Shown here: in pieces, positions 13,703-49,541 of the stretch
How the letters are laid out: every line of letters begins with the position of its first letter
How positions within the stretch are numbered: the first letter of the stretch is position 1
Source: Schmidtea polychroa
Taxonomy: Eukaryota
Reading direction: 5' to 3'
Assembly: GCA_044892525.1 (NCBI GenBank)
Contig: CM097886.1
Coordinates: forward strand, 167,140,312-167,204,311
Length of the DNA stretch: 64,000 bases
Made by a program: the position numbers and the translations under genes
The notes under the pieces: model-generated
Database searches by the model: none
Told to the model about the DNA's origin: nothing
The model's input: the letters and a program-made list of their open reading frames with translations, nothing else

Positions 13703-13989
13703 TCATTATTGCTATTATAAATTTAAAATATGTTTTATGAAAAAAATTAACAATTTCATTGGAAAGAAAGTGCTCCGAGAGAGGGAGGCATTAAATCCTC
13801 TCAATTTTTATGGTAATTTTTCACACGTGAATGTTTTAAGCCTTTAGTACAACAAATACACAATATATAAAGGCAAAAAAAAACAAAAAACAAAACAATA
13901 AAAATCAATAAAAACACAGAAATAATAAGTATAAAAATTACTGATAAAGTATTAAGAAATATTTTACTATTTTGAATAGAAACTTTTGT

Positions 13990-15190
13990 CAAATTCTAAG
14001 TCTAGATGAATTAAATATAGAATTCTATGAATTAAATATTTTCGATGTTATTTTAATATCTCCAAAGTCTTCGAACTTTTCAGGAATAAATCTCAAATAC
14101 CAATATTCATTGTATAATTGCCACATATATTAGAAACATTACTTATTGATAGGCTCAATGAAATTAAAATCTTCTTCCAACATATATATATTAATTACAA
14201 TTTTTAAATTCTCTTCTTAAATCTAAAAATTTAAACAACTGATGTGAGCAGGAGCGGATTAAGCTTTCACGGAGCCCCTGGCTGCAATTCAAACTGGTGT
14301 CCGGTCCAGTCCAGCGTCCATATAAAATTATTGCTAGCAGCTAATATAAGACTGTAACTTGTAAGGCAGAGTTAAAAAAAGTAAATAGAAGTAAATTTAA
14401 TTTATATAAAGTTAAATGAATTCACACTTCATTAAAATATTTAATATTAGACTATATATTTCAACCTAGAACCTGCGCTTGCATAACCAATTTCTGTCAA
14501 ACCGCTCTTCTTTTCGCGCATGAACATGTGTAAACAATGTTAAAGTATAATAACGGCTTTGTCCCTCCTTATCCGAATGTATACATGATTCTTTAAAACC
14601 GTCATCCTTATGTTGACATAATGATGCACCACGCTGAATCCAGTGATTTCGCATGTTCTCAGAGATTTTTTTCTGACCAGAGATGAAGATCATCAATGGC
14701 AACATAATCCAAATCCATAACAGGCTGTGGAGAAGTTTTAAGCATGAATTTTTTGTAAAAGCATAATATGACACTCCAATTTTATTTTTAATTTTAAATT
14801 TTGGGGACCCCAAAAAATTGGGGGCCCCTGGCTTTAGCCCGATCAGCCCCCCTCCAAATCCGCTACTGGATGTGAGGTAATTATTAATATTGATCATAAA
14901 TATAATTACTTTAATTTCAGATACGTTAATATAATTTAATATATAATATGATATAATTTTATATCGATTTTAATATACAAATTTAATTCAAATAGTTATT
15001 TCAACTAACTGATTATACTATTAAAATTTAAATTATATAATATTTGAATAAGAGTTTTGAAACTCTTTACTCAAGTTATCTCTGTAACTGAGTTCAAGGA
15101 CATGAAAGGCTTGAGTAATATTATTTAGGATAGAAAAATTTGTAATTGAATCGTAACTATTTGCATGGATATTATGGACGGTATTTTTTA
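13990..15190. repeat. Dispersed repeat family, copy 1 (interrupted by a hAT element); other copies at ~35040-36520 (inverted) and ~57450-57645 (inverted, uninterrupted)
   Basis: 13990-14240 is the reverse complement of ~36190-36500, and 14950-15190 of ~35050-35295. The reverse complement of 57450-57645 joins both halves without the hAT insert. Confidence 0.75.
14249..14868. mobile_element. Non-autonomous hAT element, 620 bp
   Basis: Ends CAGGAGCGGATT / AATCCGCTACTG; exact 8-bp TSD GATGTGAG at 14241-14248 and 14869-14876. Confidence 0.9.
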
Positions 15191-16158
15191 TTAAGTCTGT
15201 CTCTTAAAAGATCTGACAGTTCACTGGCATCTGGAGTGCGTGGCTAAATTAACACAAGTGTGAAAACACCTGAAAATGAGCTCTGTTATATAGCCAATGG
15301 AAAGATACTAACCAATCATAGTTAGCTTTCGCATAACTAATGATAGGGCGATGTAAATTTTGTAATTTTTAACTTTATTGTAGCGTTTATAATGTTATGT
15401 TACTAATGATTTTAAGCATTTTTTCTATTTTATTTTGCCATTTACTTATGATAATACTGAATTTCCGAAATTATTTTAACGAGAAGCCCTTACTTGTTTA
15501 AAATATTTTGCGCAACCCTTACTTACTGAAAATCTTTCAAATATAATGAATTATATAATTAAATTTAAGAATTTTAATTAAAAGAAAATTTTAATATTAG
15601 TAAATTGACATTATTTATTAATTCATAATTCACACAATCCCAAAAAATACGAAATTCATATATGTATTGAAAATATGACATTTAATTATTTTATCAGTCA
15701 GAAGAGCGGTGTTAATTCTTTTCCTGCCTAAATACATTTATAAATGAATAGCAATGTTGGGTTATTATTTAGCAACTCGGGTAGTTTCTGACTTATTATG
15801 TCCTTTTCCAATAAAATAGCTAAAACCCAACATAGCATATTTATCACAATTACAAGTTGTCACTCGATTTGCATCTTTCTTTCGTTTACAATTGTTATCG
15901 GGTAATTGCCCAACGGGTAATCACCTTTTTGTTAGAGGATGGACGAAAACTGAAGATTCTGAAAATTAAATATTACATCGTAGGAGCAGATAAATGCAGA
16001 ATAAACATATATATGGACAATATACAATAATGATAAAATCTATGTGATGAAAGGAATAAACATTACTATATTGACTCGTGAAAATAACTTATTATTAATA
16101 ATTTGATGTGATCTGTTAATTTATCTATTTATACAATTATATTAATTTATTGGTTCTT

Positions 16159-17391
16159 CTAGCAGTAGGTAGAAATGCGCACTCCAGATCCATGTGCCTT
16201 CCAGATCTGGATACTTTTACTTACACACACACATTTTAAATTTTTAAAAAATACAAATTATTGATCTATACTTAAGAAAACTCATTCTGATATTAAAAAT
16301 GTATATTAAAAAATAAACATTTATTAAAATCCCAGATAAATTCGATTATTATCTCAAATCGGTGATATGACATTTTTCTCATCCATTTTATATCCCTGTA
16401 TTGAAATATTTACAAGCCAACATGTTTTAATTACAAAAATAGTTATCAATACATCGAGTAAGGATATCAAATTATTTAGAATCAATAAGTAACACACAGA
16501 CCTTAGTGTAATAGATGTTAATATATAATAAAATAAACCCACTCACATATATATATATATAGATTAAAACACGCACATATTAACATTATTTCATACATAC
16601 GCACAAATAAATATTATTCAATACATACAAGTCATAGAGGTTAAGCAGATAACAACCAATCAAAATCATGCATTGATATTGTATCTTTATTGCATGAGTA
16701 ATATCAAAACTGTAAAATTAATAAATTCTAATAGTATTTTAAACTATATTCAATCACTAATTATTGCAAAATAAAAAATTATTTCAGTTAATGGTTACAA
16801 AACTAATAAAAATATTACAATAAATCAAAACAACATAACGAAATATTTCAATAAATTACAATAATGTTATAAAGTATTCATTAAGTTGCAGTATAGTTGG
16901 AAATTATTTCGGTGAATGGCAACAATTTAATAAATAATTTACACTAAATTACCACAAAATTATGAAACCTTTCATTAAATTGCAACAAAGTAATAACATA
17001 TTTTGGAAAAATTCCCAACAGTTCTAAAATATTTAAGCAAATTGTAACAAGATTATAAAAATATTGCAGCAAGTAATAACATACCGATGACTATTCATAT
17101 TTTTTGATTATGTTTTTATTTGGGGTATGTGAAAACTTATATCAGTGTATTAATATCAATTCGAATTTCTGTTTGTCACAGTAAATAATATTAAATAAAA
17201 TTTCTCTCGGTTTTATGAACTTAAAAATAAATTATTATTGAAAATAAAAATTAAAAAATGTTAAAAAAAGGGGCGGTCTGTAAAAAAATCTTTAAAAAAA
17301 TGTGGGGTTGGGTATTTAAAATTTTTTTTAAAAAGGTATATAGATCTTGAAAGCACATGGATCTGGAGTGCACATTACTACCTACTTCTAG
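16159..17391. mobile_element. ~1.23-kb non-autonomous TIR element
   Basis: ~50-bp imperfect TIRs CTAGCAGTAGGTAGAAATGCGCACTCCAGATCCATGTGC / GCACATGGATCTGGAGTGCACATTACTACCTACTTCTAG, with CTAG (or a TA TSD) at both ends. No ORF. Confidence 0.7.
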
Positions 17392-20300: not shown

Positions 20301-20987
20301 TAATTTACACCAGTAGTGAATAGTAAGGACTCCAGGACACTTTCAAGGTCATCCCAATGTCCAGATCAAATATAGGTCAATCGAATCATTTTTTTTTTAA
20401 TTAACANNNNNNNNNNNNNNNNNNNNNNNNNNNNNNNNNNNNNNNNNNNNNNNNNNNNNNNNNNNNNNNNNNNNNNNNNNNNNNNNNNNNNNNNNNNNNN
20501 NNNNNNNNNNNNNNNNNNNNNNNNNNNNNNNNNNNATTATTTTATTATGCTTTTATTTTAGTATTATTTTATTATTTTATTATTTTATTTATTATTATTA
20601 TTTTTTTTTTTTTATTTTTTTTTTTATTTTTTTTTTTTTTTTTAATTTTACATTTACATTATATTCTAACAAGAGGTAAATTATAACGATAATATTTCAA
20701 TTTGAATAAAATTTTAATTAGTAATTATTCAATTTGAATAAATTTTAATTAGAAATTATTTAATTTATTATAAAATAAAACGCTGAGTTAATTTTAGATA
20801 AACTGGATATTAATATTTCGGAAAAAATAAATAAATAAATAAAATAAACACAAAAATAATATTTCTTACTTGAAACTAATTATCTAAATTAATTGGACAA
20901 ATGAATAATTAAATGATAAAACACATTTTAATTAACTAAGTCAAACAATTCACAATATATATTTTATTATTCATATAAATTTAATTG

Positions 20988-23900
20988 TTAAAGTGCTTGT
21001 TTCGATTTGCATTCATTTCTAGACATAGCAGTTGCAATATGCATTTGGCGAATCTTATAGTGACCGTAGGCATAACTTTCATTACAATTGTACCAATACC
21101 TTTTATCGTCCAAACATTGGAGAGCTCGTTTTTCTGTCATGAAAGTATACAACTGATGATTGACACTTCCTATTCTTTTTTGTGGGATGCTCACTGTTCC
21201 ACCATCAGTATACACTTTTTTATAGGCTTCATGTGTAAGATTAGAGTTTGTAAGTCTTATTCCTTTGGCTTTTAGAGTGTTTTTATCGCCTTGGAGTGAG
21301 TAGCACTTGGGTCGAAGAAACACCCATTCTTTATATTGATTTCCTTTATTCTCATCCTTGAATTTCCCGATTACCGAACAAATTTTATCTGAGAACAATG
21401 GATCAGTCACTGGATAATTTGAAGTATCTAGGAGCCCATCGGCAATCATTTTTGGATATAGTTGTAAGCGTAAATCTACATTTTTACACTCTAAAAAGAA
21501 GGAATCTGTGTCACCGGCTACGATATTAATTTGACAATTGAATTCTTCTCTATAACTCTGTAGTTCTTTATATTGAAACTGGTACATGCGAAGTTTGGAT
21601 AAATCAAGTACGGTTTGTCCAATATACATTGGTCTATCTAAACACACAATTTCCTTATTGAGTATAACAGCAATGAGATCATCCGCAATCTTGATGCTAC
21701 GACGAAACATAGGATTACTACAATAAGTTATCAATCTTTTGCTTTTGCTGCATAATCTCAAATTTATACGTTTCTTCAAGTTTTCCACAGTTTTACCGTA
21801 TAAACTGTTGTTCTTTAACTTATAATAATCTCGCTGAAACGAATCTGTACTAGCTGCTCTCATTTTGGTATTGTAATCAATATAGCCTTTGAAAATAGCC
21901 ACTTGCTTGAATTCTACAGCACGATTAACTTTTGTGACTTTTGCGCCGTAACTCAACCACTCTGTCAAAACTCTACCATTAACTACATAGTTTTTCTTAG
22001 GCTCATGAGTTAACAACAGCTTTTCAACTTTACTACCAGGTGGATAACAAAGCTCAGGAGCTATAGGTAAATCATCTAGTTTATCTTGTATACTATCAGG
22101 AATGACGATGTCAACCTCTAGAACATATCCAAGATCTCCATCAAACTTATCCCCATTTGCACATCTTTCAACAATACCATTCATTTCAGTCTGATCATTT
22201 ATCCATCTAAATTCACCAACAGGAAGTTTTTGCGACAGCGCCCATCCATATAAATTATTAACATCTAGGTATGACATTTGTGTTGATTCATCAGCTTCAA
22301 CATGATGTTTGTTGATAAATGTCATTCCACCACGAATACCAGCTTCAAATAAACGGTAAAGCTCTGGATCTTGAATAAGTTCTACTGGTTCAGGTAACTG
22401 TTTAATAGCTGATGCCCAACTTAATCCGGTTATGGAAACAAACGATAGAGCCTCAAGTCCATCTTCGTCAAATGTTTTTTCTCTGAAAGCTTCAAAAACA
22501 TCGGCCAACAGAAAAACATCCAACTTGAGATATACTAGCATGTAATCTAGCAGTGTCTCACAGTTGTATTGTCGCCAGATTCGATTTGCATGTATATAAT
22601 CTTCTTGACTAACTCCCTCCCAAATCGGTGGTAATTCTGTTATTGACTGTAAAACATCCATTGATGTAGCCATATCATAAGGAAATATGCCTTTACCAGT
22701 TATTAAATGCGAATTGAAAATCTTTGAAGTAAGTGGAAGACGTGGCAAGTTTTTTGATAAATTTGCCAAGCTGCTATTTAAAAATTGTAAAGAATCAATG
22801 AATCTAATTCTTCTGCCTTTCGATGTCGCTGTAAGTGTGAGAAACTTTTCTGTTGATTGAGGAATAACAATTAAATTCCAATCGGGGAATTTTCCAATTG
22901 CATATTTTAATATATGATGAATGTCATATCCACGAAGATTATGAAATACAACAGGTAAAGACGGATTGATTCTTCTAGCCAAATTACAATCTTGACACGC
23001 TGCTCCGAGATATTGACCAGTAAAATGATCATGATCTCGAACAGGTATATTGATAATCTTTTTACAAAGGTAGCAATGAGTTTGAGTCGTGAATTCTTCC
23101 TGCTGTTCCCAAGTGAGTTCCATCATTTCCTTCGATCCATTAATTTTATACCACGGATAAACTATGTCTGTAGCTATATCATCCAATGCTTGTATAAACT
23201 GAATGATACAGTTTTTCCCAACAAATGTTTCATTTCGAATCGGACAACCTTGATGAAGAAGCACAAATTCAGATGCAATCGGCTCATGTTTTTGGAAGTG
23301 CTTGTCATCTAGAGGTAATATTGATTCAAAGTCCGCGTAGACAACAAACTGCTGTTTTATAGTTTTACTCCAGTCTTTAAATTCGATATATTTATTCTCT
23401 GGCATTGAGTATAGAGTCGTCCGCTCCACATTCTTCCTACAAAGACCTATATGTCTTTCAAAAGCAGGACGTTTTTGAAACCCATGAAGACACGTATGAC
23501 ACCAATGTGATTGGATTCTGACTCCTTCTACTCTATCTCTGTAATTGAGCAGTCGATCGAGATTAGTTACAGCCAAAAAATGATAATTTAATTCTAAAAT
23601 TTAGTTAATATTTTTAATGATTAAAAGAAATATTACCTTCTTCAATCAATAAGAGATATAATTGACATCCCGTCGAAGTACTTCTATATACCAAGTCAAC
23701 GAACGGATTCTTGAAAATATCATTAGTTTTTTGTTTAATTGGATCTTTATTATATTTGAGAACATTGATCGCTAGATTAGGATTCATTGCCTCAAATTGG
23801 CAAATGTTAACCAACTTCATTGGAAACCAATCTGATTTCCATTTTAACTCTAAATATATATATTTTTAGAATGATATAAATATATATTACCACTTAAATT

Positions 23901-24962
23901 ATATTTCATTACTCTTTCTCTGTGATGTTTTATGTCATCATAATGTAATACGGCCAGTATGCTATATAAAAAGCAGAATTGATCATTATTTTGAACATTA
24001 ACTAAAGCCTGGCAGTTTTTCAGGTAATTTGGCGTTTTAATGTAACTTGAACCTAAGTAAATATCTTGATTTATATATATAATAATGTAAATAAACTTAC
24101 CAGATACATGTATTATGTCTGATAATTTAGTTAAAATCATAGTAACTTCTAATATTTTATGAATTCTCCACCCACTACTTTGTTGAGTGTATTTCTCCAA
24201 CTTTTCTTTTAATTTTTCAATTCCATCATTAATAAATGAAGATGACATTGTAATTGCTTTATTCGACAAACACCATTTTTAATTTCACCATCCTCTTTGA
24301 TAAACTCTGCACAAAGTCCAAATTGGATTTTTACTGTACCCATTCGTTGAATATGATCTTCTATTTCTCTGATGAGATAATCTGGAACAACAATGTCAGG
24401 AGAATTAATTGCAGATACATCGCTTGTCAATTCAACACGAGAACTATTTAAGTCAGACTCCCGACGTGGACACAATTGTATGTTAGAGTCTCCATTTCCG
24501 TAAAATATTGACTTTCGTTTTGTGGTACCAGAGTTTTGTCTAACTATATTTATAATTAATATTAAACAACTTAAATAACATAACTTGTAACATATTCTTT
24601 AATCTGCTTAGGATCGTATGATGTATTCATTTTCGGTTGTACTATAAAAAATTAATAATTGTTAATAGTAGAAAGAGTATTACTTTTAGTGATCATCCTG
24701 CTCTTCGTTTCTTCGAATCTTCTAAGATGGTGTCCGTGTTGTCGTACAAACATATACCACCTACCTGGTGATATAATGAGACATTCCGGACATATGTAAC
24801 CCGATAAGGTAGAGTCATTTATCTTGAAATATGATGATGTAACTGATTTACAGTTCTCCACATCTTCATGACTTTCGGCAATACAAAATTTATATAAACT
24901 GCATCCGTTCACTAAAAGAAAATAATCATTAATATTAGATAGAGAATAAAAAATTATTCACT
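20988..24962 (-). pseudogene. polB: Left-arm copy of the spliced pPolB gene with a 1-bp frameshift
   Basis: Mirror of 28581-32556. The run at 24276-24280 is T5 versus A6 at 29263-29268, which splits the 208-aa ORF into 24209-24475 and 23850-24269. The terminal exon ORF 20988-23576 has the same 862-aa translation as the right copy. The indel could be a homopolymer sequencing error. Confidence 0.75.
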
Positions 24963-24985
24963 TATATAAGTTAAATTAAAAGTTT

Positions 24986-25123
24986 AAATGACAAACATTT
25001 GAAAAGTTACTGCTTATATATTACACATGATTAAATTCTGACCAATCAAAATCAAGGAAGGGGTAGGAAAAATAAATATATTCTGACCAATCAAAATCAA
25101 GGAAGGGGTAGGAAAAATAAATG
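24986..25123 (-). promoter_or_regulatory. Left-arm mirror of the polB promoter (2x CCAAT, TATA, Inr)
   Basis: 45-bp duplication containing GACCAATC at 25035 and 25080; reverse complement of 28420-28557. Confidence 0.65.
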
Positions 25124-25249
25124 TGTTACAGTATTTTAAAAGTTCAATATATTTTAAAACACATTTTGATGCTAAAGTTGACTTATTTAACATTTTCATA
25201 ATAATTTAATAAAAATAATGTGATGAACCCACAAAGTAATATCATTTTT

Positions 25250-25675
25250 CATCAAATTGCAAAACAGTAATAACGTTTTCATAAAATTGTAACAAAATAA
25301 TAACATATTTCAGATAAATTTTCAACAGTTGTAAAATATTTAAACAAATTGTAACAAGATTAGAAAATATTACAACAAAGTAGTAACATATTTCAGAAAA
25401 TTTCAACAAAGTTGTAAAATATTTATCAAATTGTAACTAAAATAATAAAAATATTGCAACAAAGTAATAAAATAATGATGTTAATTGGGACAAATCAATA
25501 CATTATTTCGAAGACGGACAACAAATTAAAAAGAATATTGTAATAAATTGTGAAGTCTTTCAGTAAATTACAACAAAGTAATAACATATTTCGGAAATAT
25601 TTCACCAGATGTAAAATATTTAAGCAAAATGTTATAAGATTATAAAAATATTGCAACAAAGTAATAAAATAATAC
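25250..25675. repeat. Degenerate ~83-bp tandem repeat block inside the arm (mirror at ~27868-28293)
   Basis: Recurring AAATT(G/A)(C/T)AACAAAGTAATAACATATTTC and TGTAAAATATTTA motifs. Confidence 0.7.
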
Positions 25676-25693
25676 AACATTTTAAACTCTAGA

Positions 25694-26445
25694 TCAATCC
25701 ATTTTATAGAAAATTAAATTTTATCTCTATAATATATGAATAAATATACAAGGAAATTACGTTAACTGTATGAAAAATACAAATTTATCGTAAAAAACAT
25801 GTGTGTATTACACACAACATACAAGACATAATTTTTAATCAAGCTATTTTATAGAAAATTAAATTTTATCTATATAATATATGAATAAATATTCAAGGAA
25901 ATTACGTTAACGTATAATAAATACAAATTTATCATAAAAACATGTGTGTATTACACAAAAAAAAAACAAGATACATAATTTCTAATCAATCCATTTTATA
26001 GAAAATTAAATTTTATCTATATATTATATGAATAAAATCCTAAGAAAATTACGTTAACTATATGAAAAATACAAATTTATCTTAAAAACATGTGTGTATT
26101 ACACACAGAACAAGATACATAATTTCTAATCAATCCATTTTATAGAAAATTAAATTTTATCTATATATTATATGAATAAAATCCTAAGAAAATTACGTTA
26201 ACTGTATGAAAAATACAAATTTATCGTAAAAACATGTGTGTATTACACACAAAGCGACAAACTAAAATTGTAATTGAGCCATTTTATAGAAAATTAAATT
26301 TTATCTATATAATATATGAATAAAAATCCAAGAAAATTACGTTAACCGCGCGAAAAATACAAATTTATCGTAAAAACATGTGTGTATTACACACAAAGCG
26401 ACAAACTAAAATTGTAATTGAGCCATTTTGTAGAGAATTAAATTC
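25694..26445. repeat. Array of five 144-147-bp units plus a partial unit, each with internal palindromes (mirror at ~27098-27849)
   Basis: ATTTT(A/G)TAGA recurs at 25701, 25846, 25993, 26137, 26281 and 26425. Units carry TGTGTGTA-T-TACACA(CA) and ACGTTAAC palindromes. Confidence 0.9.
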
Positions 26446-26556
26446 TGCCTATACATGGTTACACTTAAATCCCAATCGAACAAAGAGAAAAGAGAGAAAA
26501 AGAGAGAGAAAAAACAGTAGAGTAGGGTATTGTGTGGACCCGGGAACAAAGACATA

Positions 26557-26576
26557 TGACGTCATCGATGACGTCA
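26557..26576. other. Perfect 20-bp palindrome TGACGTCATCGATGACGTCA (two CRE-like octamers) in the central spacer
   Basis: Direct reading; the direct repeat ACAAAGACATAT occurs on both sides. Confidence 0.85.
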
Positions 26577-26765
26577 CAAAGACATATTACNNNNNNNNNN
26601 NNNNNNNNNNNNNNNNNNNNNNNNNNNNNNNNNNNNNNNNNNNNNNNNNNNNNNNNNNNNNNNNNNNNNNNNNNNNNNNNNNNNNNNNNNNNNNNNNNNN
26701 NNNNNNNNNNNNNNNNNNNNNNNNNNNNNNNNNNNNNNNNNNNNNNNNNNNNNNNNNNNNNNNNN

Positions 26766-26941
26766 GTATTTTAAAATTTATATTACGTTGCGGTATTTTA
26801 AAATTTATATTACGTTGCGGTATTTTAAAATTTATATTACGTTGCGGTATTTTAAAATTTATATTACGTTGCGGTATTTTAAAATTTATATTACGTTGCG
26901 GTATTTTAAAATTTATATTACGTTGCGGTATTTTAAAATTT
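26766..26941. repeat. 27-bp tandem array (6.5 visible copies) in the central spacer
   Basis: Unit GTATTTTAAAATTTATATTACGTTGCG. The bases before the N-run end in ATATTAC, matching the unit, so the array may continue through 26591-26765. Confidence 0.95.
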
Positions 26942-28419
26942 AATTATATTTTATTCACATCATTCGTAAGGTCTTGAAGAGATCTATGCAAAGGTTTCAC
27001 CCGGGTCCACACAATACCCTACTCTACTGTTTTTCTCTCTCTTTTTCTCTCTTTTCTCTTTGTTCGATTGGGATTTAAGTGTAACCATGTATAGGCAGAA
27101 TTTAATTCTCTACAAAATGGCTAAATTACAATTTTAGTTTGTCGCTTTGTGTGTAATACACACATGTTTTTACGATAAATTTGTATTTTTCGCGCGGTTA
27201 ACGTAATTTTCTTGGATTTTTATTCATATATTATATAGATAAAATTTAATTTTCTATAAAATGGCTCAATTACAATTTTAGTTTGTCGCTTTGTGTGTAA
27301 TACACACATGTTTTTACGATAAATTTGTATTTTTCATACAGTTAACGTAATTTTCTTAGGATTTTATTCATATAATATATAGATAAAATTTAATTTTCTA
27401 TAAAATGGATTGATTAGAAATTATGTATCTTGTTCTGTGTGTAATACACACATGTTTTTAAGATAAATTTGTATTTTTCATATAGTTAACGTAATTTTCT
27501 TAGGATTTTATTCATATAATATATAGATAAAATTTAATTTTCTATAAAATGGATTGATTAGAAATTATGTATCTTGTTTTTTTTTTGTGTAATACACACA
27601 TGTTTTTATGATAAATTTGTATTTATTATACGTTAACGTAATTTCCTTGAATATTTATTCATATATTATATAGATAAAATTTAATTTTCTATAAAATAGC
27701 TTGATTAAAAATTATGTCTTGTATGTTGTGTGTAATACACACATGTTTTTTACGATAAATTTGTATTTTTCATACAGTTAACGTAATTTCCTTGTATATT
27801 TATTCATATATTATAGAGATAAAATTTAATTTTCTATAAAATGGATTGATCTAGAGTTTAAAATGTTGTATTATTTTATTACTTTGTTGCAATATTTTTA
27901 TAATCTTATAACATTTTGCTTAAATATTTTACATCTGGTGAAATATTTCCGAAATATGTTATTACTTTGTTGTAATTTACTGAAAGACTTCACAATTTAT
28001 TACAATATTCTTTTTAATTTGTTGTCCGTCTTCGAAATAATGTATTGATTTGTCCCAATTAACATCATTATTTTATTACTTTGTTGCAATATTTTTATTA
28101 TTTTAGTTACAATTTGATAAATATTTTACAACTTTGTTGAAATTTTCTGAAATATGTTACTACTTTGTTGTAATATTTTCTAATCTTGTTACAATTTGTT
28201 TAAATATTTTACAACTGTTGAAAATTTATCTGAAATATGTTATTATTTTGTTACAATTTTATGAAAACGTTATTACTGTTTTGCAATTTGATGAAAAATG
28301 ATATTACTTTGTGGGTTCATCACATTATTTTTATTAAATTATTATGAAAATGTTAAATAAGTCAACTTTAGCATCAAAATGTGTTTTAAAATATATTGAA
28401 CTTTTAAAATACTGTAACA

Positions 28420-28557
28420 CATTTATTTTTCCTACCCCTTCCTTGATTTTGATTGGTCAGAATATATTTATTTTTCCTACCCCTTCCTTGATTTTGATTG
28501 GTCAGAATTTAATCATGTGTAATATATAAGCAGTAACTTTTCAAATGTTTGTCATTT
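28420..28557 (+). promoter_or_regulatory. Predicted RNA polymerase II promoter of polB
   Basis: Reverse CCAAT boxes (ATTGG) at 28452 and 28497 within a 45-bp duplication. TATATAAG at 28523-28530 and Inr-like TCATTT at 28552-28557, with its A 31 nt after the first T of the TATA box. Confidence 0.7.
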
Positions 28558-28580
28558 AAACTTTTAATTTAACTTATATA

Positions 28581-31500
28581 AGTGAATAATTTTTTATTCT
28601 CTATCTAATATTAATGATTATTTTCTTTTAGTGAACGGATGCAGTTTATATAAATTTTGTATTGCCGAAAGTCATGAAGATGTGGAGAACTGTAAATCAG
28701 TTACATCATCATATTTCAAGATAAATGACTCTACCTTATCGGGTTACATATGTCCGGAATGTCTCATTATATCACCAGGTAGGTGGTATATGTTTGTACG
28801 ACAACACGGACACCATCTTAGAAGATTCGAAGAAACGAAGAGCAGGATGATCACTAAAAGTAATACTCTTTCTACTATTAACAATTATTAATTTTTTATA
28901 GTACAACCGAAAATGAATACATCATACGATCCTAAGCAGATTAAAGAATATGTTACAAGTTATGTTATTTAAGTTGTTTAATATTAATTATAAATATAGT
29001 TAGACAAAACTCTGGCACCACAAAACGAAAGTCAATATTTTACGGAAATGGAGACTCTAACATACAATTGTGTCCACGTCGGGAGTCTGACTTAAATAGT
29101 TCTCGTGTTGAATTGACAAGCGATGTATCTGCAATTAATTCTCCTGACATTGTTGTTCCAGATTGTCTCATCAGAGAAATAGAAGATCATATTCAACGAA
29201 TGGGTACAGTAAAAATCCAATTTGGACTTTGTGCAGAGTTTATCAAAGAGGATGGTGAAATTAAAAAATGGTGTTTGTCGAATAAAGCAATTACAATGTC
29301 ATCTTCATTTATTAATGATGGAATTGAAAAATTAAAAGAAAAGTTGGAGAAATACACTCAACAAAGTAGTGGGTGGAGAATTCATAAAATATTAGAAGTT
29401 ACTATGATTTTAACTAAATTATCAGACATAATACATGTATCTGGTAAGTTTATTTACATTATTATATATATAAATCAAGATATTTACTTAGGTTCAAGTT
29501 ACATTAAAACGCCAAATTACCTGAAAAACTGCCAGGCTTTAGTTAATGTTCAAAATAATGATCAATTCTGCTTTTTATATAGCATACTGGCCGTATTACA
29601 TTATGATGACATAAAACATCACAGAGAAAGAGTAATGAAATATAATTTAAGTGGTAATATATATTTATATCATTCTAAAAATATATATATTTAGAGTTAA
29701 AATGGAAATCAGATTGGTTTCCAATGAAGTTGGTTAACATTTGCCAATTTGAGGCAATGAATCCTAATCTAGCGATCAATGTTCTCAAATATAATAAAGA
29801 TCCAATTAAACAAAAAACTAATGATATTTTCAAGAATCCGTTCGTTGACTTGGTATATAGAAGTACTTCGACGGGATGTCAATTATATCTCTTATTGATT
29901 GAAGAAGGTAATATTTCTTTTAATCATTAAAAATATTAACTAAATTTTAGAATTAAATTATCATTTTTTGGCTGTAACTAATCTCGATCGACTGCTCAAT
30001 TACAGAGATAGAGTAGAAGGAGTCAGAATCCAATCACATTGGTGTCATACGTGTCTTCATGGGTTTCAAAAACGTCCTGCTTTTGAAAGACATATAGGTC
30101 TTTGTAGGAAGAATGTGGAGCGGACGACTCTATACTCAATGCCAGAGAATAAATATATCGAATTTAAAGACTGGAGTAAAACTATAAAACAGCAGTTTGT
30201 TGTCTACGCGGACTTTGAATCAATATTACCTCTAGATGACAAGCACTTCCAAAAACATGAGCCGATTGCATCTGAATTTGTGCTTCTTCATCAAGGTTGT
30301 CCGATTCGAAATGAAACATTTGTTGGGAAAAACTGTATCATTCAGTTTATACAAGCATTGGATGATATAGCTACAGACATAGTTTATCCGTGGTATAAAA
30401 TTAATGGATCGAAGGAAATGATGGAACTCACTTGGGAACAGCAGGAAGAATTCACGACTCAAACTCATTGCTACCTTTGTAAAAAGATTATCAATATACC
30501 TGTTCGAGATCATGATCATTTTACTGGTCAATATCTCGGAGCAGCGTGTCAAGATTGTAATTTGGCTAGAAGAATCAATCCGTCTTTACCTGTTGTATTT
30601 CATAATCTTCGTGGATATGACATTCATCATATATTAAAATATGCAATTGGAAAATTCCCCGATTGGAATTTAATTGTTATTCCTCAATCAACAGAAAAGT
30701 TTCTCACACTTACAGCGACATCGAAAGGCAGAAGAATTAGATTCATTGATTCTTTACAATTTTTAAATAGCAGCTTGGCAAATTTATCAAAAAACTTGCC
30801 ACGTCTTCCACTTACTTCAAAGATTTTCAATTCGCATTTAATAACTGGTAAAGGCATATTTCCTTATGATATGGCTACATCAATGGATGTTTTACAGTCA
30901 ATAACAGAATTACCACCGATTTGGGAGGGAGTTAGTCAAGAAGATTATATACATGCAAATCGAATCTGGCGACAATACAACTGTGAGACACTGCTAGATT
31001 ACATGCTAGTATATCTCAAGTTGGATGTTTTTCTGTTGGCCGATGTTTTTGAAGCTTTCAGAGAAAAAACATTTGACGAAGATGGACTTGAGGCTCTATC
31101 GTTTGTTTCCATAACCGGATTAAGTTGGGCATCAGCTATTAAACAGTTACCTGAACCAGTAGAACTTATTCAAGATCCAGAGCTTTACCGTTTATTTGAA
31201 GCTGGTATTCGTGGTGGAATGACATTTATCAACAAACATCATGTTGAAGCTGATGAATCAACACAAATGTCATACCTAGATGTTAATAATTTATATGGAT
31301 GGGCGCTGTCGCAAAAACTTCCTGTTGGTGAATTTAGATGGATAAATGATCAGACTGAAATGAATGGTATTGTTGAAAGATGTGCAAATGGGGATAAGTT
31401 TGATGGAGATCTTGGATATGTTCTAGAGGTTGACATCGTCATTCCTGATAGTATACAAGATAAACTAGATGATTTACCTATAGCTCCTGAGCTTTGTTAT

Positions 31501-32556
31501 CCACCTGGTAGTAAAGTTGAAAAGCTGTTGTTAACTCATGAGCCTAAGAAAAACTATGTAGTTAATGGTAGAGTTTTGACAGAGTGGTTGAGTTACGGCG
31601 CAAAAGTCACAAAAGTTAATCGTGCTGTAGAATTCAAGCAAGTGGCTATTTTCAAAGGCTATATTGATTACAATACCAAAATGAGAGCAGCTAGTACAGA
31701 TTCGTTTCAGCGAGATTATTATAAGTTAAAGAACAACAGTTTATACGGTAAAACTGTGGAAAACTTGAAGAAACGTATAAATTTGAGATTATGCAGCAAA
31801 AGCAAAAGATTGATAACTTATTGTAGTAATCCTATGTTTCGTCGTAGCATCAAGATTGCGGATGATCTCATTGCTGTTATACTCAATAAGGAAATTGTGT
31901 GTTTAGATAGACCAATGTATATTGGACAAACCGTACTTGATTTATCCAAACTTCGCATGTACCAGTTTCAATATAAAGAACTACAGAGTTATAGAGAAGA
32001 ATTCAATTGTCAAATTAATATCGTAGCCGGTGACACAGATTCCTTCTTTTTAGAGTGTAAAAATGTAGATTTACGCTTACAACTATATCCAAAAATGATT
32101 GCCGATGGGCTCCTAGATACTTCAAATTATCCAGTGACTGATCCATTGTTCTCAGATAAAATTTGTTCGGTAATCGGGAAATTCAAGGATGAGAATAAAG
32201 GAAATCAATATAAAGAATGGGTGTTTCTTCGACCCAAGTGCTACTCACTCCAAGGCGATAAAAACACTCTAAAAGCCAAAGGAATAAGACTTACAAACTC
32301 TAATCTTACACATGAAGCCTATAAAAAAGTGTATACTGATGGTGGAACAGTGAGCATCCCACAAAAAAGAATAGGAAGTGTCAATCATCAGTTGTATACT
32401 TTCATGACAGAAAAACGAGCTCTCCAATGTTTGGACGATAAAAGGTATTGGTACAATTGTAATGAAAGTTATGCCTACGGTCACTATAAGATTCGCCAAA
32501 TGCATATTGCAACTGCTATGTCTAGAAATGAATGCAAATCGAAACAAGCACTTTAA
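28581..32556 (+). CDS. polB: Protein-primed family B DNA polymerase with N-terminal extension, C2H2-like finger and inserted endonuclease VII-like domain; 7 exons, 1236 aa
   Basis: Coding exons 28581, 28632-28859, 28902-28958, 29000-29443, 29492-29653, 29695-29907 and 29951-32556 total 3711 nt with no internal stop; all introns are GT-AG. Motifs: ExoI YADFES, EndoVII-like CYLC..RDHDHFTGQYLGAACQDCN, ExoII FHNLRGYD, ExoIII YLKLD, PolA YLDVNNLYG, PolB KLKNNSLYGK, PolC GDTDS, and KCY. The last exon (ORF 29968-32556) is near certain; the two most 5' introns are less so. Confidence 0.9.
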
Positions 32557-32575
32557 CAATTAAATTTATGTGAAT

Positions 32576-32581
32576 AATAAA
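32576..32581 (+). promoter_or_regulatory. Candidate polyadenylation signal of polB
   Basis: AATAAA 20 nt after the stop codon; weak evidence in AT-rich DNA. Confidence 0.4.
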
Positions 32582-34260
32582 ATATATATTGTGAATTGTT
32601 TGACTTAGTTAATTAAAATGTGTTTTATCATTTAATTATTCATTTGTCCAATTAATTTAGATAATTAGTTTCAAGTAAGAAATATTATTTTTGTGTTTAT
32701 TTTATTTATTTATTTATTTTTTCCGAAATATTAATATCCAGTTTATCTAAAATTAACTCAGCGTTTTATTTTATAATAAATTAAATAATTTCTAATTAAA
32801 ATTTATTCAAATTGAATAATTACTAATTAAAATTTTATTCAAATTGAAATATTATCGTTATAATTTACCTCTTGTNNNNNNNNNNNNNNNNNNNNNNNNN
32901 NNNNNNNNNNNNNNNNNNNNNNNNNNNNNNNNNNNNNNNNNNNNNNNNNNNNNNNNNNNNNNNNNNNNNNNNNNNNNNNNNNNNNNNNNNNNNNNNNNNN
33001 NNNNNNNNNNNNNNNNNNNNNNNNNAATAAAATAATNNNNNNNNNNNNNNNNNNNNNNNNNNNNNNNNNNNNNNNNNNNNNNNNNNNNNNNNNNNNNNNN
33101 NNNNNNNNNNNNNNNNNNNNNNNNNNNNNNNNNNNNNNNNNNNNNNNNNNNNNNNNNNNNNNNNTGTTAATTAAAAAAAAAATGATTCGATTGACCTATA
33201 TTTGATCTGGACATTGGGATGACCTTGAAAGTGTCCTGGAGTCCTTACTATTCACTACTTACACCCACCAAATTAAGAAAACAATATATAAATAATTAAA
33301 TAAATTGGGAACAATAAATATTTTTATTTTTTTTAGATTTGAAAGAAAATACTCTTTGTTAGCCCAAAAGAAATGACTATTTTTTTTGCTGTTTTATGTT
33401 TGAATTTTTAATTTTAATTCATTGAAATAAATTTATCTATAAAAATTTGGAACTGTTGCTCGGTATTTAATAAAACGTTTTTGATGATTATCTCAATTAG
33501 ATAATCTCAGACTTATGGAGGCATCAAAAGTCAATAGAAAAAGAAATATTAAATGATTTAATAATTAAATAATCAACTCATTCTAACAGAAAGTTTTTAT
33601 CGCAGGTTTTTTGTTNNNNNNNNNNNNNNNNNNNNNNNNNNNNNNNNNNNNNNNNNNNNNNNNNNNNNNNNNNNNNNNNNNNNNNNNNNNNNNNNNNNNN
33701 NNNNNNNNNNNNNNNNNNNNNNNNNNNNNNNNNNNNNNNNNNNNNNNNNNNNNNNNNNNNNNNNNNNNNNNNNNNNNNNNNNNNNNNNNGCGCGCGTTAT
33801 ACGCATTTTTACAAACCGTGCACCCCCCATGCGCGGTATCTGTGGGTGCGCGCTTTATGATTTATATTTTACACGTGGCGGCATGGCCAGTGGAAATATT
33901 TTTATGATGTGACAGTAACCCTACCATCGGTTTTATTGTTTATTGTAATCAGATACCGCGCGCNNNNNNNNNNNNNNNNNNNNNNNNNNNNNNNNNNNNN
34001 NNNNNNNNNNNNNNNNNNNNNNNNNNNNNNNNNNNNNNNNNNNNNNNNNNNNNNNNNNNNNNNNNNNNNNNNNNNNNNNNNNNNNNNNNNNNNNNNNNNN
34101 NNNNNNNNNNNNNNNNNNNNNNNNNNNNNNNNNNNNNNNNNNNNNNNNNNNNNNNNNNNNNNNNNNNNNNNNNNNNNNNNCACTGATTTTCGTTCAATTG
34201 ACATTTGATATTCGTGAATATCAAAAAAACATCGATATATTTACTAATTCATAGTCAGGA

Positions 34261-34331: not shown

Positions 34332-35317
34332 TAGATAAAAAGTAAAAGGGAATTTTGTGGAGTAGAAAAATGATGGTAATAACTAAAAAAATTAATAAAA
34401 TCTGGAAATCATAAATATGTAATTATTATTCTTTGATAATTTCGAAATACTTATAGTTCCGTATTTTCAAGCTAGCAGAAATATAAATATTTACAATTGA
34501 GATTTATTGAAATATAATTTCTTTATTTTTTCGTAATTGCATTTTAAATTTTGAAATCTATTTTTTATTTTTTAAGATTTTTTTAAGTGCTTTATTTTTG
34601 TCATCATACTAAAGGGAATTGGAAAATATGATTTAAATTTGAACAAAATTTTATTTTGAAGAGTTTCTCAAAATCCAAAGAGAAAATGAATACAAGACAT
34701 TATACAGGTGAACTCATTTATTTCTATATATTTCTGTATTTTTAGACGACAACAGAAATTATTAATAAAATTTCTCAAAATATGAAGATAAGAGAAATCG
34801 ATAAAAGAACGTTGAGATAGAGGTAAATTTATTTAATTATATTAAACTATTAAGTAATAATCATTTTGTAATTATTAATTTCTAAATATTTTCTTTAAAT
34901 GTAAAGTCTTTTAAACAAAAATAAAATATATTTCAGTAATTTGAACGCATTTAATAATTTTTTATTATTGTCATAGATGAAAATGACAAAGATGACAAGT
35001 TTATGTAAATTAATAATTTTAATAAATACCCGCACAAATTTGCTGAAACTTAATCAACAATACCGTCCATAATATCCATGCAAATAGTTACGATTCAATT
35101 ACACATTTGTCTGTCCTAAATAATATTACTCAAGCCTTTCATTCGATTATTTCCCTGAATTCCGTTACCGAGATCACTTGAGTAAAGAGTTTCAAAACTC
35201 CTATTTAAATATTATATAATTTAAATGTTATTAGTATAATCAGTTAGTTGAAATAACTATTTGAATTAAATTTGTATGTTAAAATCGATATTGAATTATG
35301 TCATTGTAGTTCCTTCA

Positions 35318-36180: not shown

Positions 36181-36226
36181 TGTTGTTTAAATTTTTAGAT
36201 AAAAGAAGAGAATTTAAAAATTGTAA

Positions 36227-36275
<49 letters not shown>

Positions 36276-38534
36276 GAAGAAGACTTGAATTTCATTGAGC
36301 CTATCAATGAGAAATGTTTCTAATATATGTGGCAATTATACAATGAATATTGGTATTTGAGATTTATTCCTGAAAAGTTCGAAGATTTTGTAGATATTAA
36401 AATAACATCGAAAATATTACATTCATGAAATTTCTAAAACATTCACACAAACGGACCATCAAATCGTGAGATTTTATAGAATTCTATATTTAATTAATCT
36501 GGACTTAGATTTTGACAAACTTTCCTATTCAAAATAGTAAAATATTTCTTATCCGTTCTTAACTTTTATGATTTTAAATTATATATAATTTTGGTAGTAT
36601 TTGGAAAGACATATTTTTAAATAATATTTGCCAAATATACTGGAAACTAGTCTACTATTAGAAATCGCATTGAATATTATGACATTGAAATTTAAAGAAG
36701 TGACGGAAGGACATGGGGAATCTCACCCGATTCGGAAACTGTTAATGATTGAATGTTTACTAATACTCGAAGCCGTGTCAGTTGTATATGTCTCACTTCA
36801 CCAAGTTCTGTAAGTGTCATGTTAGTAATGTTAAAGGGAACTATTTTTCCTAAATTTCTCTTATTTTTCAACTGCTATGATTGTATTTAATAAATGACCA
36901 GGTACAGATTCATGAAACATGAACTAGGAATACATTTCATCTGTATAAGCATCTATGTGGAATTATAAGAACTTCTTTCAATTTTCACCTCTGATTTCTT
37001 TTCAATTGACATTGTATTTATTAAAATGTTGACTATAAATAACTAAAGATATCAATGATTTTTTATATCTCTACCTATTCATGGTCAATCTTTTAATAAA
37101 TACAATATCTATGTGGAAGTTTTCATGAAATGTATTTACTAGGATAAAAAATTTCTGAGTAGCTGAATATGGTCCAAAGAAGTTCTTGGGAAGGAGGAAC
37201 AAAAGAAATGTGTTCATGTATTTATCTGTTGTTGTTTTTCTATTCTATAAAACTTAAATGCACAATTTATAAAATGTAGAAATTATTCCTATTAGCGCTT
37301 TCCCATTCTGCCTGCGAGTGTAAACCAGTCCTTCAATTACCTTCAATTATGCACCCTTTGTTATAAGAATATTATGAATATAATAAGATCTCACTCAAGT
37401 AGTAAGTAGAATATTAATGGAAATTCAAAAATGAAAGCGAAACCATTGGTGAACCTAGAGGGTTAGTGTTTAGTCTAACAGGTTTTGGATGTATATTATT
37501 TGACCAAATAATTGAGGTATGGAATAAAGATATTTCAAGAGTAAGGATTGCAACATCAGCAAATTTAAATCAAATTTTAAAATGGATTTTCATGTCAAGT
37601 ACACAAAAAATGAAAATAAATTTTCATCTATTTTACCGTGTAAAGTCAATAAAAGGACTGCAAACCATTTCATTGATTTTTTATGTTTTTGTCATTTTGG
37701 AGTTGTTTGCTTCCTCACTCTCCATTGTTTTCACTTGGTCAAATGAATTGAAGTTGGGCAGTTTTATTAAAAGCTTTTTATTGTCTACTTTTGTTTGTTA
37801 ATAATATCTAGAAAACATTGAAATTGTTAGTTTATGTGACATTCGTATAGTGAATGATTGACACAAATATACCAACACAAATATAAAAGGATTTTATTTT
37901 TAAATTAACCTTCTGGTTTAATTGAAGTATTTTTATTTAATATTTGATGGTTTAGATCATTGAATGATCAGATTCTGGGGTTTGGTAACTTAGTTACTAT
38001 ATTTAAATGTCGACAATATTGATTACCAAATACACTGGAAACTAGTCTACTATTAGAAATCGCATTGAATATCATTTTAAAAATAATAAACCTTATTTTA
38101 TTATGTGAGTTATCTGAAAACCAAAACGATTTTATTTAATCTTTACTGTATAATTAATAACTTTAAGAAACGGAAATAGTTGTAATAATCTTTATTAATT
38201 TCAAATATTTCCATTGTTTCTTTGAAAACTGTTTCTGGCAATCAAACTTGTACAATTTCGACAGGACTTTCAGAAACTTTGGTATTGGTTATGGCAATAA
38301 ATTATACGTCTTTGATAGACATTTTTGAATTAGAAAACATGGTAGAGTATACGGATATATGAAAATATAATATTAAAATAAACCTTAATACAAATAGAAA
38401 AATTAATTTTAATTAAATTTCCATAATTTTTATGTCACCAGCAAAATGACTATTAAAAACTTTGAAATAATACTTTTTGCTTTAATTACACTTTCTTCTT
38501 CATGTTGATTTTCACAATGTTGATTGGTGTAAAT

Positions 38535-46418: not shown

Positions 46419-46828
46419 TGTGGTTAAATTCAGCGCGCCGTCAAAAGACTCTCTCCGAATTATTCCCCGAAAATCCTTCTGTGAATTATTCCCCGTAAAT
46501 TACTTCTTAAAATCCAAAAGAAACACAATTCAGCGACAATACGTTTATTAACAATTAAATATTATAACAATTATATTTGAATCGATACATTATCAATTTC
46601 CAACATTAAACTTAAGAAAGAACCCGATCGTATGAGTCGCCGCGGTGGCAACAATTAAAACAAACATCAGAATAATAATATTACATATATTTTAACATTT
46701 TAATTCCAACTTTCTCATAATGCTCCCTTGCACTCTACAACACAAAATATTAAACTTTTCAACATTCGAACTATAATCAGTTTTAAAACATTTAATTATA
46801 ACAAACTTAAATTACCCTTTTACTCACA
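46419..46828 (-). repeat. 3' LTR
   Basis: Direct repeat of 50447-50856 with at least 3 substitutions; the polypurine tract is adjacent (TCCCCCGAG on +, 46829-46837). Confidence 0.95.
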
Positions 46829-46860
46829 TCCCCCCGAGTTTGTCAAGTAAGCACACACTC

Positions 46861-49541
46861 TTATTCGTTGCGTGCTCGTATATTTTTAACATGCATACAT
46901 ACCCCATCAACAGAAACATTCCATGCCGAATTTACATCTGTTACCACACCTTCTCTCCACTCATCCATGCAAGTCGCATCACCACCCTTTACATGAACGA
47001 CATCACCAACTCGAAACTTTCCACTCGTTTCATTGTCCCGATCTCTTTCAACATTTTCGTCATTCAACTCGTATGCATATATGGAAGCAAATGGCACGGA
47101 GCATTCATCTTGACCCTCGCGCGGCGACGCATTATACCAAAACAGCATTTCTTCCACAGTTCCCCGCGTTCGAGCCACCATCCTTTTTATTGTCCTGTGG
47201 TTACGTTCCACAATTCCATTTCCAGAAGGTTCATACGCACATCTATACATATGCTTTACTTTCCATTCATCACAAAATTTTCTCAATGCATCGCTTTTAA
47301 ACGCTCCTCCATTATCACTAAGTAATTCTCTGCAAAACCCTCTTTCGAACATGGTTTTTCTTATCGCATTCAACACGCTTCGTCCACTTTCATCTTTCAA
47401 CTCATGCCATATTGCATACCTCCCGGGTCCGCAGTCCACTACCGACAAATACTTCTTTCCCTCCAAATGCACAACATCCACTGCTATTCTGACCCACGTG
47501 CCACCCACGCTCAACTCACCTTTCGGCATTCTACACGCATGCGGATCAACGGTAGCACACTTAAAACAATTTCTCACGACCGCCTCCACGTCCTTTCGTT
47601 TAACCACGTCAAATTTCTTTTTTACAAAATACATGGTTCGATCAACGCCAAAATGATGTTTTTCATGCTCTAATGTTATTTGATCCACTTCAACACTCGC
47701 GCACGCATGCGTTCCGCGATTATGCCCCACTCTCGTCAATGCATCCGCCTTATTCGCTCCCGATGGAATCCATTCGACAGTAACATTCAAACCGTAATCG
47801 GTAATCATTTCCTCAATTATATCCAATCTTCGCTTTATCAAGTATTCGTGCATACCCTTCACGTGCACCTTTTTCGATTTTGTCAACAGAGCTTTGATCC
47901 ACGCCACGACCGAAGTTGAATCGCATTTCACCGTTATATCGGCGAATTTCCATTCAATTGCCATCGCCACGCCTTTTATGAAGGCGTCCAATTCAGCCAC
48001 GTTTATGTGTTTCACCTCGTCAACTTTTCGAAGCCATACTGCATCTTCCACACATTTTTCATTTTGCTCCACGTACACCGCCATCGCAACTCTGCTCGCA
48101 TCCGTATATACTGTAACATTTCCATTTCCATCCACGCTCCATACCCCCTGCGCTGGATCCTCACGTTCTATACGTTTCAGCAGCATTTTTATATCTCGTT
48201 TCGTTTCGTCGCCTGCATAATCATCCCATTTAGTACCCTTCATATTTCTTTTAATTACGCTACACTCAAGTCGCAACGATCCACATATAGGATAATGCCC
48301 TATGACTTTTCCGCATATTGAAAACACATCTCGACGCGAACAACTTTTTGTTTCACATTTCAAATCACCCAAGGGACCACGCCCCCACCATCGCTTGCCA
48401 TCCTTCTTCCCTTGCAACTGCAACCTAGTATTCGCATGTCATCGACATCTTCGTGATCCTTTGTCACTAATCCATATTGCTTCAAATGATTCACAACTTC
48501 GCATTCCGTAATTCCATTCAAATTCACAATTATGTCATCAACGTAGTGTGAAGTATTCTCATTAACTTTCGAGTTCAACTTGAGAACGTACGACACTATA
48601 CCATCCATTATCTTCGGCGCACTCTTCAATCCGAATCCCAATCGCGTAAGTCGATAACGCGTTTTGTTGTGTGACACTGTCTGATACTTCCATAGCGACT
48701 CTTCAACATGAATTTGCAAGTACGCTCGCTTTAAGTCAACCACTGCCACGTTGTCGCCCATTTTTCGCCATCTTCTCAGCTCAGACCTGCATTCCTGCGC
48801 ATCACCTGTGTGACTACTCACGCTCTTATTTACCGATTTATAGTTCAACACTGGTCTCACTTTGTCTTTCTTCTGCTGCACCACAGCAATCAACGGCAAT
48901 ATACCTTCTACGTTTTCATCCGTTTGCACCAATATGCCTTATTTTATCCATGCATCAATTTCTTCATCGAATGTGTTCTTCGTTTCTTGCGATATCCCAT
49001 AATTTGCAACATTTTCATGCAAGATCGGTTCTCGTTCGTTCCACAACCATCTAACCGTCCACTTATCTCCATCAAACCACGCCTCATAATCCGGATCACT
49101 AATTTTATGTTCGACCGACATCACCGCCCTAACGCCGCAACCAACACTTTTCCCATTATCGAACTTCACACCTTCTGACGTTACACGCATTCCGCCCATT
49201 TTCGTCAATACATCCATTCCCACTATAATATCGATTCCTTCCAACATCTCAGCCAACACTATACACTGCACATTCATTCGTTCACCTACCATGTCCAACA
49301 CAACACGTCGCATTTCACCACTCTCCCCGCATTTTCCGTTTGCAAGCAATAATCTCACGCTACACGTTTCATGATCACCTTCTTTCGACACACCATTTCT
49401 CAACAACATGTGCGAACAGCCTGTGTCGATCAACGCCCTACACCGCACGCCGTCCACCGTCACCTCCATTACATTATTCGCGCTTACCTGTCCACACGGA
49501 CGTCCGCCAGCGCACGCGAACTCCGTTGCTCGTTTCCCCAC
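46861..49541 (-). pseudogene. pol: pol (protease, RT, RNase H, integrase) with one nonsense and one frameshift lesion
   Basis: Protease LIDTGCS; RT YVDD; RNase H YTDAS / HINVAELD / CDS / ADALTR; integrase HHCC and VDVV..SDNG..GIVER. An in-frame TAA at 48939-48941 separates same-frame ORFs 48939-49541 and 48360-48932, and a frameshift near 48423 leads into ORF 46861-48423. Confidence 0.9.

Follow-up and report, generated by a model that had tools for sequence, protein, structure and literature searches.

Introduction

Animal Polintons, or Mavericks, among which the adintoviruses are counted, encode an "Alpha" PolB that carries an OTU domain and the PF03175 polymerase domain (PMC8502044), and a terminal protein and an OTU protease have been described as parts of the Polintons' family B DNA polymerase, which is protein-primed (pPolB; bioRxiv 2024.03.18.585575). 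Mavericks end in an (AGT)2 motif, and intact vertebrate copies are intronless (PMC8097293); in a nematode Maverick, core genes are intronless and cargo genes contain introns (bioRxiv 2022.07.12.499685), and dinoflagellate eupolintoviruses carry introners (PMC12166617). These statements, like all later ones that cite a source, extend to excerpted portions of the texts named. Here, we describe a polymerase gene of this type, polB, in a 64,000-nt stretch of the Schmidtea polychroa genome (contig CM097886.1; the whole stretch is called the window). The gene (28581 to 32556, plus strand) is very likely interrupted by six spliceosomal introns and is one of two mirror copies within a palindromic element, a duplication that does not appear in an initial annotation of the gene. 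Planarian Polintons are listed in Repbase.

As in animal Polintons, the element combines protein-primed family B polymerase domains, the terminal-protein and OTU domains among them, with (AGT)2 ends, terminal inverted repeats, and a 6-bp target-site duplication. It differs from them in that no integrase, packaging ATPase, protease, or capsid gene was found in it and in that its inverted repeats, with a polB gene in each, span almost its entire length. The six very likely introns set it apart from the vertebrate and nematode elements, whose core genes are intronless in the accounts excerpted; intron-free core genes, as described for Polintons, fit a virus-like life. Spliceosomal introns within Polinton-like elements are also found in the dinoflagellate eupolintoviruses. 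However, the excerpted account describes those as copies of active introner transposons, whereas the introns analyzed here occupy sites common to diverged polymerases, and the six segments are not mutual copies (14 of 15 pairs align no better than shuffles, and the pair of segments 1 and 2 gives an uncorrected p of 0.004). Introns inside a Maverick are likewise known from nematodes, but there, in the excerpt, it is captured host genes that contain them, whereas here a core replication gene is split. A literature search that left supplements, Kapitonov and Jurka 2006, and Repbase outside its scope found no account of the palindromic element or of introns in an animal Polinton polB, so that an earlier description is possible; the excerpted portions of PMC6431247, PMC10175614, PMC8502044, and bioRxiv 2023.08.22.554363 contain nothing on either.

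Six GT-AG segments interrupt a single polB frame

The six segments measure 50, 42, 41, 48, 41, and 43 nt, each starts with GT and ends with AG, and the coordinates, lengths, and ends that the initial annotation gave for them were all borne out. Their G+C content lies between 10 and 17%, compared with 30 to 37% in the exons, and their length of 41 to 50 nt compares with a planarian intron-length peak at 45 to 85 bp (PMC13594981). Removing them leaves exons that total 3,711 nt, that is, the 1,236 codons previously claimed plus a stop. The internal exons (228, 57, 444, 162, and 213 nt) are all multiples of three, and the coding length summed up to every junction equals 1 modulo 3, which makes all six junctions phase 1; both properties, recomputed, agree with the earlier description. 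As a chance control, we collected every GT..AG segment of 38 to 55 nt with a G+C content of at most 20%: the 18 overlapping candidates all fall at the six named sites within the 5' 1.4 kb, and none was found in the 2.6-kb last exon. The 42-nt segment contains an in-frame stop and the 48-nt segment none. Exons 2 and 4 lie in different frames, and to join them the acceptor at 28999 is the minimum required. The last exon matches PF03175 (E 1.8e-30) and holds exonuclease and polymerase motifs.

Read in this way, the coding part of exon 1 is just the first base of the start codon (28581), as placed by the segment check and by homologue alignment. Intron 1 (28582 to 28631) is followed by exon 2 (28632 to 28859), a Cys/His-rich N-terminal domain kept in homologues; intron 2 (28860 to 28901) by exon 3 (28902 to 28958), a variable linker and the least certain of the exons; and intron 3 (28959 to 28999), which has a weak donor, by exon 4 (29000 to 29443), which comprises the end of the linker and, according to a homologue's model, the terminal-protein (little-finger-like) domain. 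Intron 4 (29444 to 29491) lies at the boundary between terminal protein and OTU domain. Exon 5 (29492 to 29653) holds the N-terminal part of the OTU protease with its invariant Cys, exon 6 (29695 to 29907) the OTU core, and exon 7 (29951 to 32556) the OTU His, the exonuclease and polymerase motifs, and the stop codon, with introns 5 (29654 to 29694) and 6 (29908 to 29950) between them. For the domain limits, we used L069, a homologue without interruptions; in its model (predicted local distance difference test score of 78), residues 116 to 227 resemble a little-finger domain (Z 8.5, root mean square deviation 2.4, 92 aligned) and residues 241 to 372 an OTU fold (Z 7.0, root mean square deviation 3.5 to 3.9, about 100 aligned); on this model, the terminal-protein fold would correspond to exon 4 and the OTU fold to exons 5 and 6 and the start of exon 7. 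A Foldseek search gave no match at E≤0.001, and when the homologue profile was compared with PDB sequences, no hit reached significance, the best being a phi29-type polymerase (E 0.11).

Upstream of the gene, a stretch on the same strand (28452 to 28529) looks promoter-like, with two ATTGG motifs (inverted CCAAT) within a 45-nt duplication and a TATA-like motif at 28523 to 28529. Intron 1 contains a five-codon ATG frame (28614 to 28631) that ends at the intron's own acceptor, and this ATG would be the first start codon if the transcript were left unspliced.

Uninterrupted homologues lack most of the segments

A protein search with the last exon returned 2,927 proteins at E≤1e-20; among the 120 listed, we used the 67 with at least 1,080 amino acids, aligning them to a read-through query with an X placed at each junction. 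Five of them (P0002, P0010, P0020, P0023, and P0025) align from about residue 1 to 4 through to the end of the read-through. Segments 1, 4, 5, and 6 are not present in the uninterrupted homologues, and an alignment of 12 homologues leaves no space for the last three of these. P0010, P0015, and P0023 have a Met where the split start codon aligns, and two more homologues have one a residue earlier, in agreement with the proposal that intron 1 splits the ATG after its first base.

The initial annotation had named intronless homologues aligning to the 48-nt or the 42-nt segment as evidence that would speak against introns. For the 48-nt segment the outcome is uniform, with a higher score after its omission in 67 of 67 long homologues. 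The 42-nt segment has its internal stop in its favor, but homologue scores are mixed, with removal favored in only 6 of 14, because segments 2 and 3 fall in a variable, unalignable linker; homology therefore pins neither the exact edges of these two segments nor the inclusion of the 57-nt exon between them. Taken together with the copies analyzed below, homology makes it very likely that the gene encodes a Polinton-type pPolB and that its six segments are host-style spliceosomal mini-introns, as first proposed.

Intron lengths drift among copies while splice sites and frames are kept

We next compared the polB-bearing arm of the element with other arms in the genome, using 54 alignments drawn from the 30 best-scoring loci and 14 fetched elements, with both arms of an element counted. 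Length alleles number 19 in 265 nt of intron and 5 in 1,204 nt of exon. The 48-nt segment measures 47, 49, 50, 96, or 100 nt in 11 arms, with the allele shorter by one shared by 6 of them, and the 42-nt segment 41 to 45 nt in 5 arms; frame-breaking length alleles thus occur in both. Across copies, intron 1 ranges from 47 to 53 nt, intron 4 from 47 to 100 nt, and intron 5 from 41 to 91 nt. The GT and AG ends, typical of U2-type spliceosomal introns, are intact in all arms except for one donor, changed in both arms of one element. Among codon variants in the exons, 32 are synonymous, 64 replace an amino acid, and 4 create stops, and for variants present in at least four arms the ratio of synonymous to replacing is 14 to 17. 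The last exon is open over 870 codons in 52 of 52 scored copies, these being the best candidates only. The near-identical arms, about 160 of them, form a natural record of mutation and make the family a compact system for studying intron gain, loss, and phase bias.

Intron sites are shared with distantly related polymerases

We obtained 75 metagenome loci with related polB genes and inspected the closest 27 (L069 to L095). L077 and L083, which are 45 to 56% identical to the window's polB depending on the segment, contain AT-rich GT-AG introns of 43 to 48 nt at the sites and in the phase of introns 4 and 6 and lack intron 5, and L090 and L093 start within such an intron at site 6, showing its acceptor side. 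An intron at site 2 is found in L094 and in L091/L072, together with two further linker introns, and a linker intron of L077 has flanks similar to those of intron 3. In L080, four phase-1 mini-introns surround three 66-nt exons, two of which are evident duplicates (80 to 469). By eye, we located 16 short GT-AG segments in 5 related loci, all 16 in phase 1 and with internal exons that are multiples of three. L069, L070, L071, L081, and L085 have uninterrupted polB DNA. A search of viral contigs added one distant locus only. Apparent breaks in L096, L098, L118, and L144 turned out to be alignment starts or small frameshifts instead of introns, and a break near residue 625 of L093 also looks like a frameshift. 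Nor was there support for reading the homologues' 4- to 5-kb contigs as polymerase-only elements too: further genes of Polintons are present in L072 (a Polinton with an rve integrase and an A32 ATPase) and in L082, and no inverted repeat was found in L069 to L095. The intron-bearing L072 also encodes a TBP-like protein (10321 to 10779).

A tree of 14 rows was built from a 331-amino-acid piece of exon 7, omitting L091 as near-identical to L072 and omitting database proteins, whose DNA was not seen. In it, L077 clusters with four rows that have neither intron 4 nor intron 6 (support 100/99), and a topology that unites all intron-6 bearers in one clade is rejected (approximately unbiased test, p-AU 1.2e-5); in a quick tree, the window's polB falls in a polytomy. 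The simplest reading of these sequences is that the introns at sites 2, 4, and 6 were likely inherited and then repeatedly lost elsewhere, and introns 1 and 5 may be younger. The earlier suggestion that a virus-like element newly acquired its introns is not upheld, as most of them look inherited. The long nuclear residence derived from it holds for the lineage, given sites 2, 4, and 6 in relatives of 45 to 56% identity, but not for this element itself: intron sites common to roughly half-identical polymerases suggest that the lineage has long been transcribed in host nuclei.

Composition accounts for part of the uniform phase

In the AT-rich coding sequence of the last exon, 46 to 53% of the G| and AG| sites are in phase 1, from which the probability that six of six introns share this phase is about 0.01 to 0.02. 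A phase bias remains but is smaller than an even split would imply. The duplicated 66-nt linker exons of L080 mean that phase-1 introns were copied along with them, and the uniform phase likely results from G-rich first codon positions, symmetric duplication of linker exons, and inheritance, rather than from selection for exon skipping.

A palindromic element built from two polB arms

The whole element (20312 to 33259; 12,948 bp) is a palindromic, polymerase-only Polinton derivative with the ends AGTAGT...ACTACT, flanked by a 6-bp target-site duplication, TACACC, on the plus strand at 20306 to 20311 and 33260 to 33265. Its left arm (20312 to 26544, minus strand) and right arm (27000 to 33259, plus strand) form a giant inverted repeat of 99.9% identity, with 6 differences over 5,877 aligned nt. 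The mirror polB (20988 to 24962, minus strand) has the same six segments and lacks one base in an A run of exon 4, which is either a broken frame or an assembly error. Tandem repeats of about 144 nt, whose number differs between copies, occupy the inner end of the arm (27068 to 27872, plus strand; mirror at 25672 to 26475).

In the 781 Mb searched, four large contigs, the exact element termini occur 79 times in forward and 82 times in reverse orientation, amounting to about 80 copies and some 160 arms. Besides the window copy, 17 of the fetched copies have both ends, and 16 of these are flanked by their own 6-bp duplication. Full copies measure 12.4 to 13.9 kb, and among the rest are copies with internal deletions or nested insertions. 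Neither the window element nor the unmasked copy B contains frames for integrase, capsid, ATPase, or protease; the open reading frames of these two are all fragments of polB or else frames antisense to these or within repeats, and the inserts of 13 further copies are nested foreign elements or have no open reading frame. The element works like a non-autonomous Polinton. One copy (L052-L053, G000:C1 73 to 91 kb) has an inverted instead of a direct flanking 6-mer and a 3.3-kb insert in one arm. Snap-back defective-interfering genomes and palindromes seeded by short repeats, such as Tetrahymena rDNA, likewise consist of two mirror halves that meet at a short inverted repeat, have a small center that is asymmetric, and share the predicted helper dependence; unlike these, the present element is inserted in the genome between target duplications and has retained a polymerase of its own.

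Three parts make up the center (26521 to 27023, plus strand): the start of the terminal repeat of an autonomous Polinton family of the same genome, in which 27-nt repeats occur; a brief unique sequence; and the first 24 nt of that terminus in inverted orientation. Its non-palindromic part (26545 to 26999) is partly N. It matches the terminal repeat of a capsid-rich family over 70 nt at 98.6% and in 116-nt blocks at 100% in the window, and over 197 columns at 87% in the unmasked copy. The center-specific end occurs 108 times in the genome. The motif was present in 17 of 18 fetched center stretches, and all 17 (of the 108) were flanked by arm sequence, so that the idea of the center as a free miniature element was rejected. 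The capsid-rich autonomous family (L151 to L159; G000:C1 130.23 Mb, C2 105.69 Mb, and C1 146.38 Mb) has at least 102 capsid matches, is about 15.3 kb long, and carries a TBP-like gene besides those for integrase, ATPase, and protease. Introns 2 to 6 are missing from its polB, in which inspection by eye shows a phase-1 acceptor immediately ahead of the Cys/His domain; this polB is only 52% identical to that of the palindrome, which means that the arms derive from another Polinton. A second family (L054 to L056; G000:C2 131.65 to 131.67 Mb) is represented by a complete Polinton nested in the polB of one palindromic copy, with capsid, a PLA2-integrase fusion, ATPase, and a 1,308-codon polB in one frame; its ends have 8 nt in common with those of the palindrome. 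A palindromic polymerase-only form with a helper terminus at its axis can inform on Polinton replication and on what integrase needs in cis, which to our knowledge rest on models, not experiments.

Proposed mechanism and alternative explanations

The reading that we consider probable is that of a Polinton-type polB with six phase-1 segments that are very likely spliceosomal introns, three of them at shared and hence likely inherited sites, in a palindrome predicted to copy itself by means of this polymerase and to be inserted by the integrase of complete Polintons in the same genome. Host transcription would begin at the inner end of each arm, and the host spliceosome would take out the six introns, completing the start codon and giving a single polyprotein frame that runs from a Zn-binding domain through terminal protein and OTU protease to the polymerase. 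Released by the OTU domain, the terminal protein would then act as primer for synthesis at the AGTAGT outer ends; the displaced single strand would fold back on itself because the palindrome's halves are complementary, and insertion of the linear copy would fall to a helper integrase, which would generate the 6-bp duplication. The palindrome itself likely arose via fold-back at the 24-nt inverted repeat of the captured Polinton terminus. It is tempting to speculate further, though only tentatively, that an old animal Polinton lineage depends on splicing for its replication gene, having gained, duplicated, and lost phase-1 mini-introns, that the element is its polymerase-only fold-back satellite with a captured helper terminus as axis, and that the host may gate replication by intron retention, above all of the start-codon intron.

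Several observations weigh against the inherited and spliced introns of this reading. Among the contigs of four runs tentatively taken to be RNA (X1, X2, and X4 among them), which show neither strand nor level, no GT-AG joint is listed. Intron 1 is retained in an X1 contig (28546 to 28729), intron 2 in an X2 contig (28647 to 28906), intron 3 in contigs of X1 (28910 to 29159) and X2 (28935 to 29376), and introns 2 and 3 together in an X4 contig (28621 to 29324), and further contigs extend into introns 4 and 6. The transcript evidence on which the initial annotation had wanted the junctions judged thus goes only partly its way: in one X1 contig end, 13 letters unique to the end of exon 6 stand directly before the intron-6 acceptor, which fits splicing, and no assembly copy has intron 6 absent or shorter than 26 nt. 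An X1 joint at 29641 to 29713 (71 skipped, with the intervening letters unread) corresponds to intron 5 plus 30 exon letters and was not taken as evidence. The dominance of unspliced contigs, along with the 4 rare exon stop alleles among the arms, would fit segments that are retained today, so that no full polymerase is made and helper proteins do all the copying. We regard this as very unlikely, given that the segments drift in length with their splice dinucleotides and the exon frames preserved, that the last exon remains open in all scored copies, and that the spliced-type contig end exists. A caveat to the drift is that AT-microsatellite slippage inflates intron indels, that the arms of one element are not independent, and that intron 3 is invariant in 51 of 51 arms whereas the other five introns vary. 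Splicing nevertheless appears very likely, though it is barely seen in the contigs. Planarian Polintons are repressed by PIWI (PMC8532177, PMC10558129), which may be the reason for the scarcity of spliced RNA, and the arms within host DNA would be another source of unspliced read-through. The palindrome could, given the near identity of its arms, be an assembly or chimeric-read artifact around a single ordinary gene, but differing 6-bp duplications at 17 insertion sites, an asymmetric center common to copies, and the internally deleted and nested-insert variants make this extremely improbable.

Further points against the preferred reading concern the age of the introns. By path, the nearest relatives (L069 to L071) have no coding introns, and introns 1 and 5 have no counterpart among the relatives examined; the tree covers the exon-7 piece only, and its intron-6 group was named after the quick tree had been seen. 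The introns could then be real but recent gains, the relatives' matches being possible parallel gains at favored G|G or AG| sites; dissimilar intron sequences at the common sites and a composition that favors phase 1 would agree with this. Recent gain nonetheless seems improbable, since sites 2, 4, and 6 are common to relatives, sites 4 and 6 occur together in three separate branches, and exon 7 offers 166 AG| sites without containing an intron. Still less probable is that selection maintains the uniform phase and the split start codon as a means of skipping exons and of switching the polymerase on and off by splicing, which the initial annotation had put forward. In its favor are the phase shared by all introns here and all those located in relatives, the retention of introns in most contigs, and the PIWI repression of planarian Polintons (PMC8532177); if intron retention were regulated, PIWI silencing would be linked to the splicing of a DNA element. 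However, skipping exon 4 would remove the terminal protein and skipping exon 5 or 6 would cut the OTU fold, whose invariant Cys and His lie in exons 5 and 7, which makes exon skipping implausible as the point of the uniform phase, and on the domain model harmless skipping would be limited to the linker exon. Moreover, L091 and L094 bear introns with an unsplit start codon, and the bias is partly accounted for by composition and by the duplication of exons. The domain assignments behind this argument come with middling Z scores (7 to 8.5), and more than one family may be the helper: the palindrome's outer ends have 8 nt in common with one family, and its center comes from another.

Other features of the window

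On the minus strand, 46419 to 50856 is a Ty3/gypsy long terminal repeat (LTR) retrotransposon with 410-nt LTRs of 99.3% identity and with zf-CCHC, aspartyl protease, reverse transcriptase, RNase H, integrase, and DUF7047 domains spread across several frames. Outside the target duplication of the palindrome lie older inverted pairs (13953 to 14239 with 36182 to 36551, and 14948 to 15196 with 35048 to 35304; 73 to 89% identical), one piece of which reappears at 57413 to 57521, so that they are probably dispersed repeats. A diverged piece (72 to 86%) of the arm's upstream repeat region is found outside the element at 16843 to 17089, and 54089 to 54686 holds a separate 146-nt tandem repeat family.

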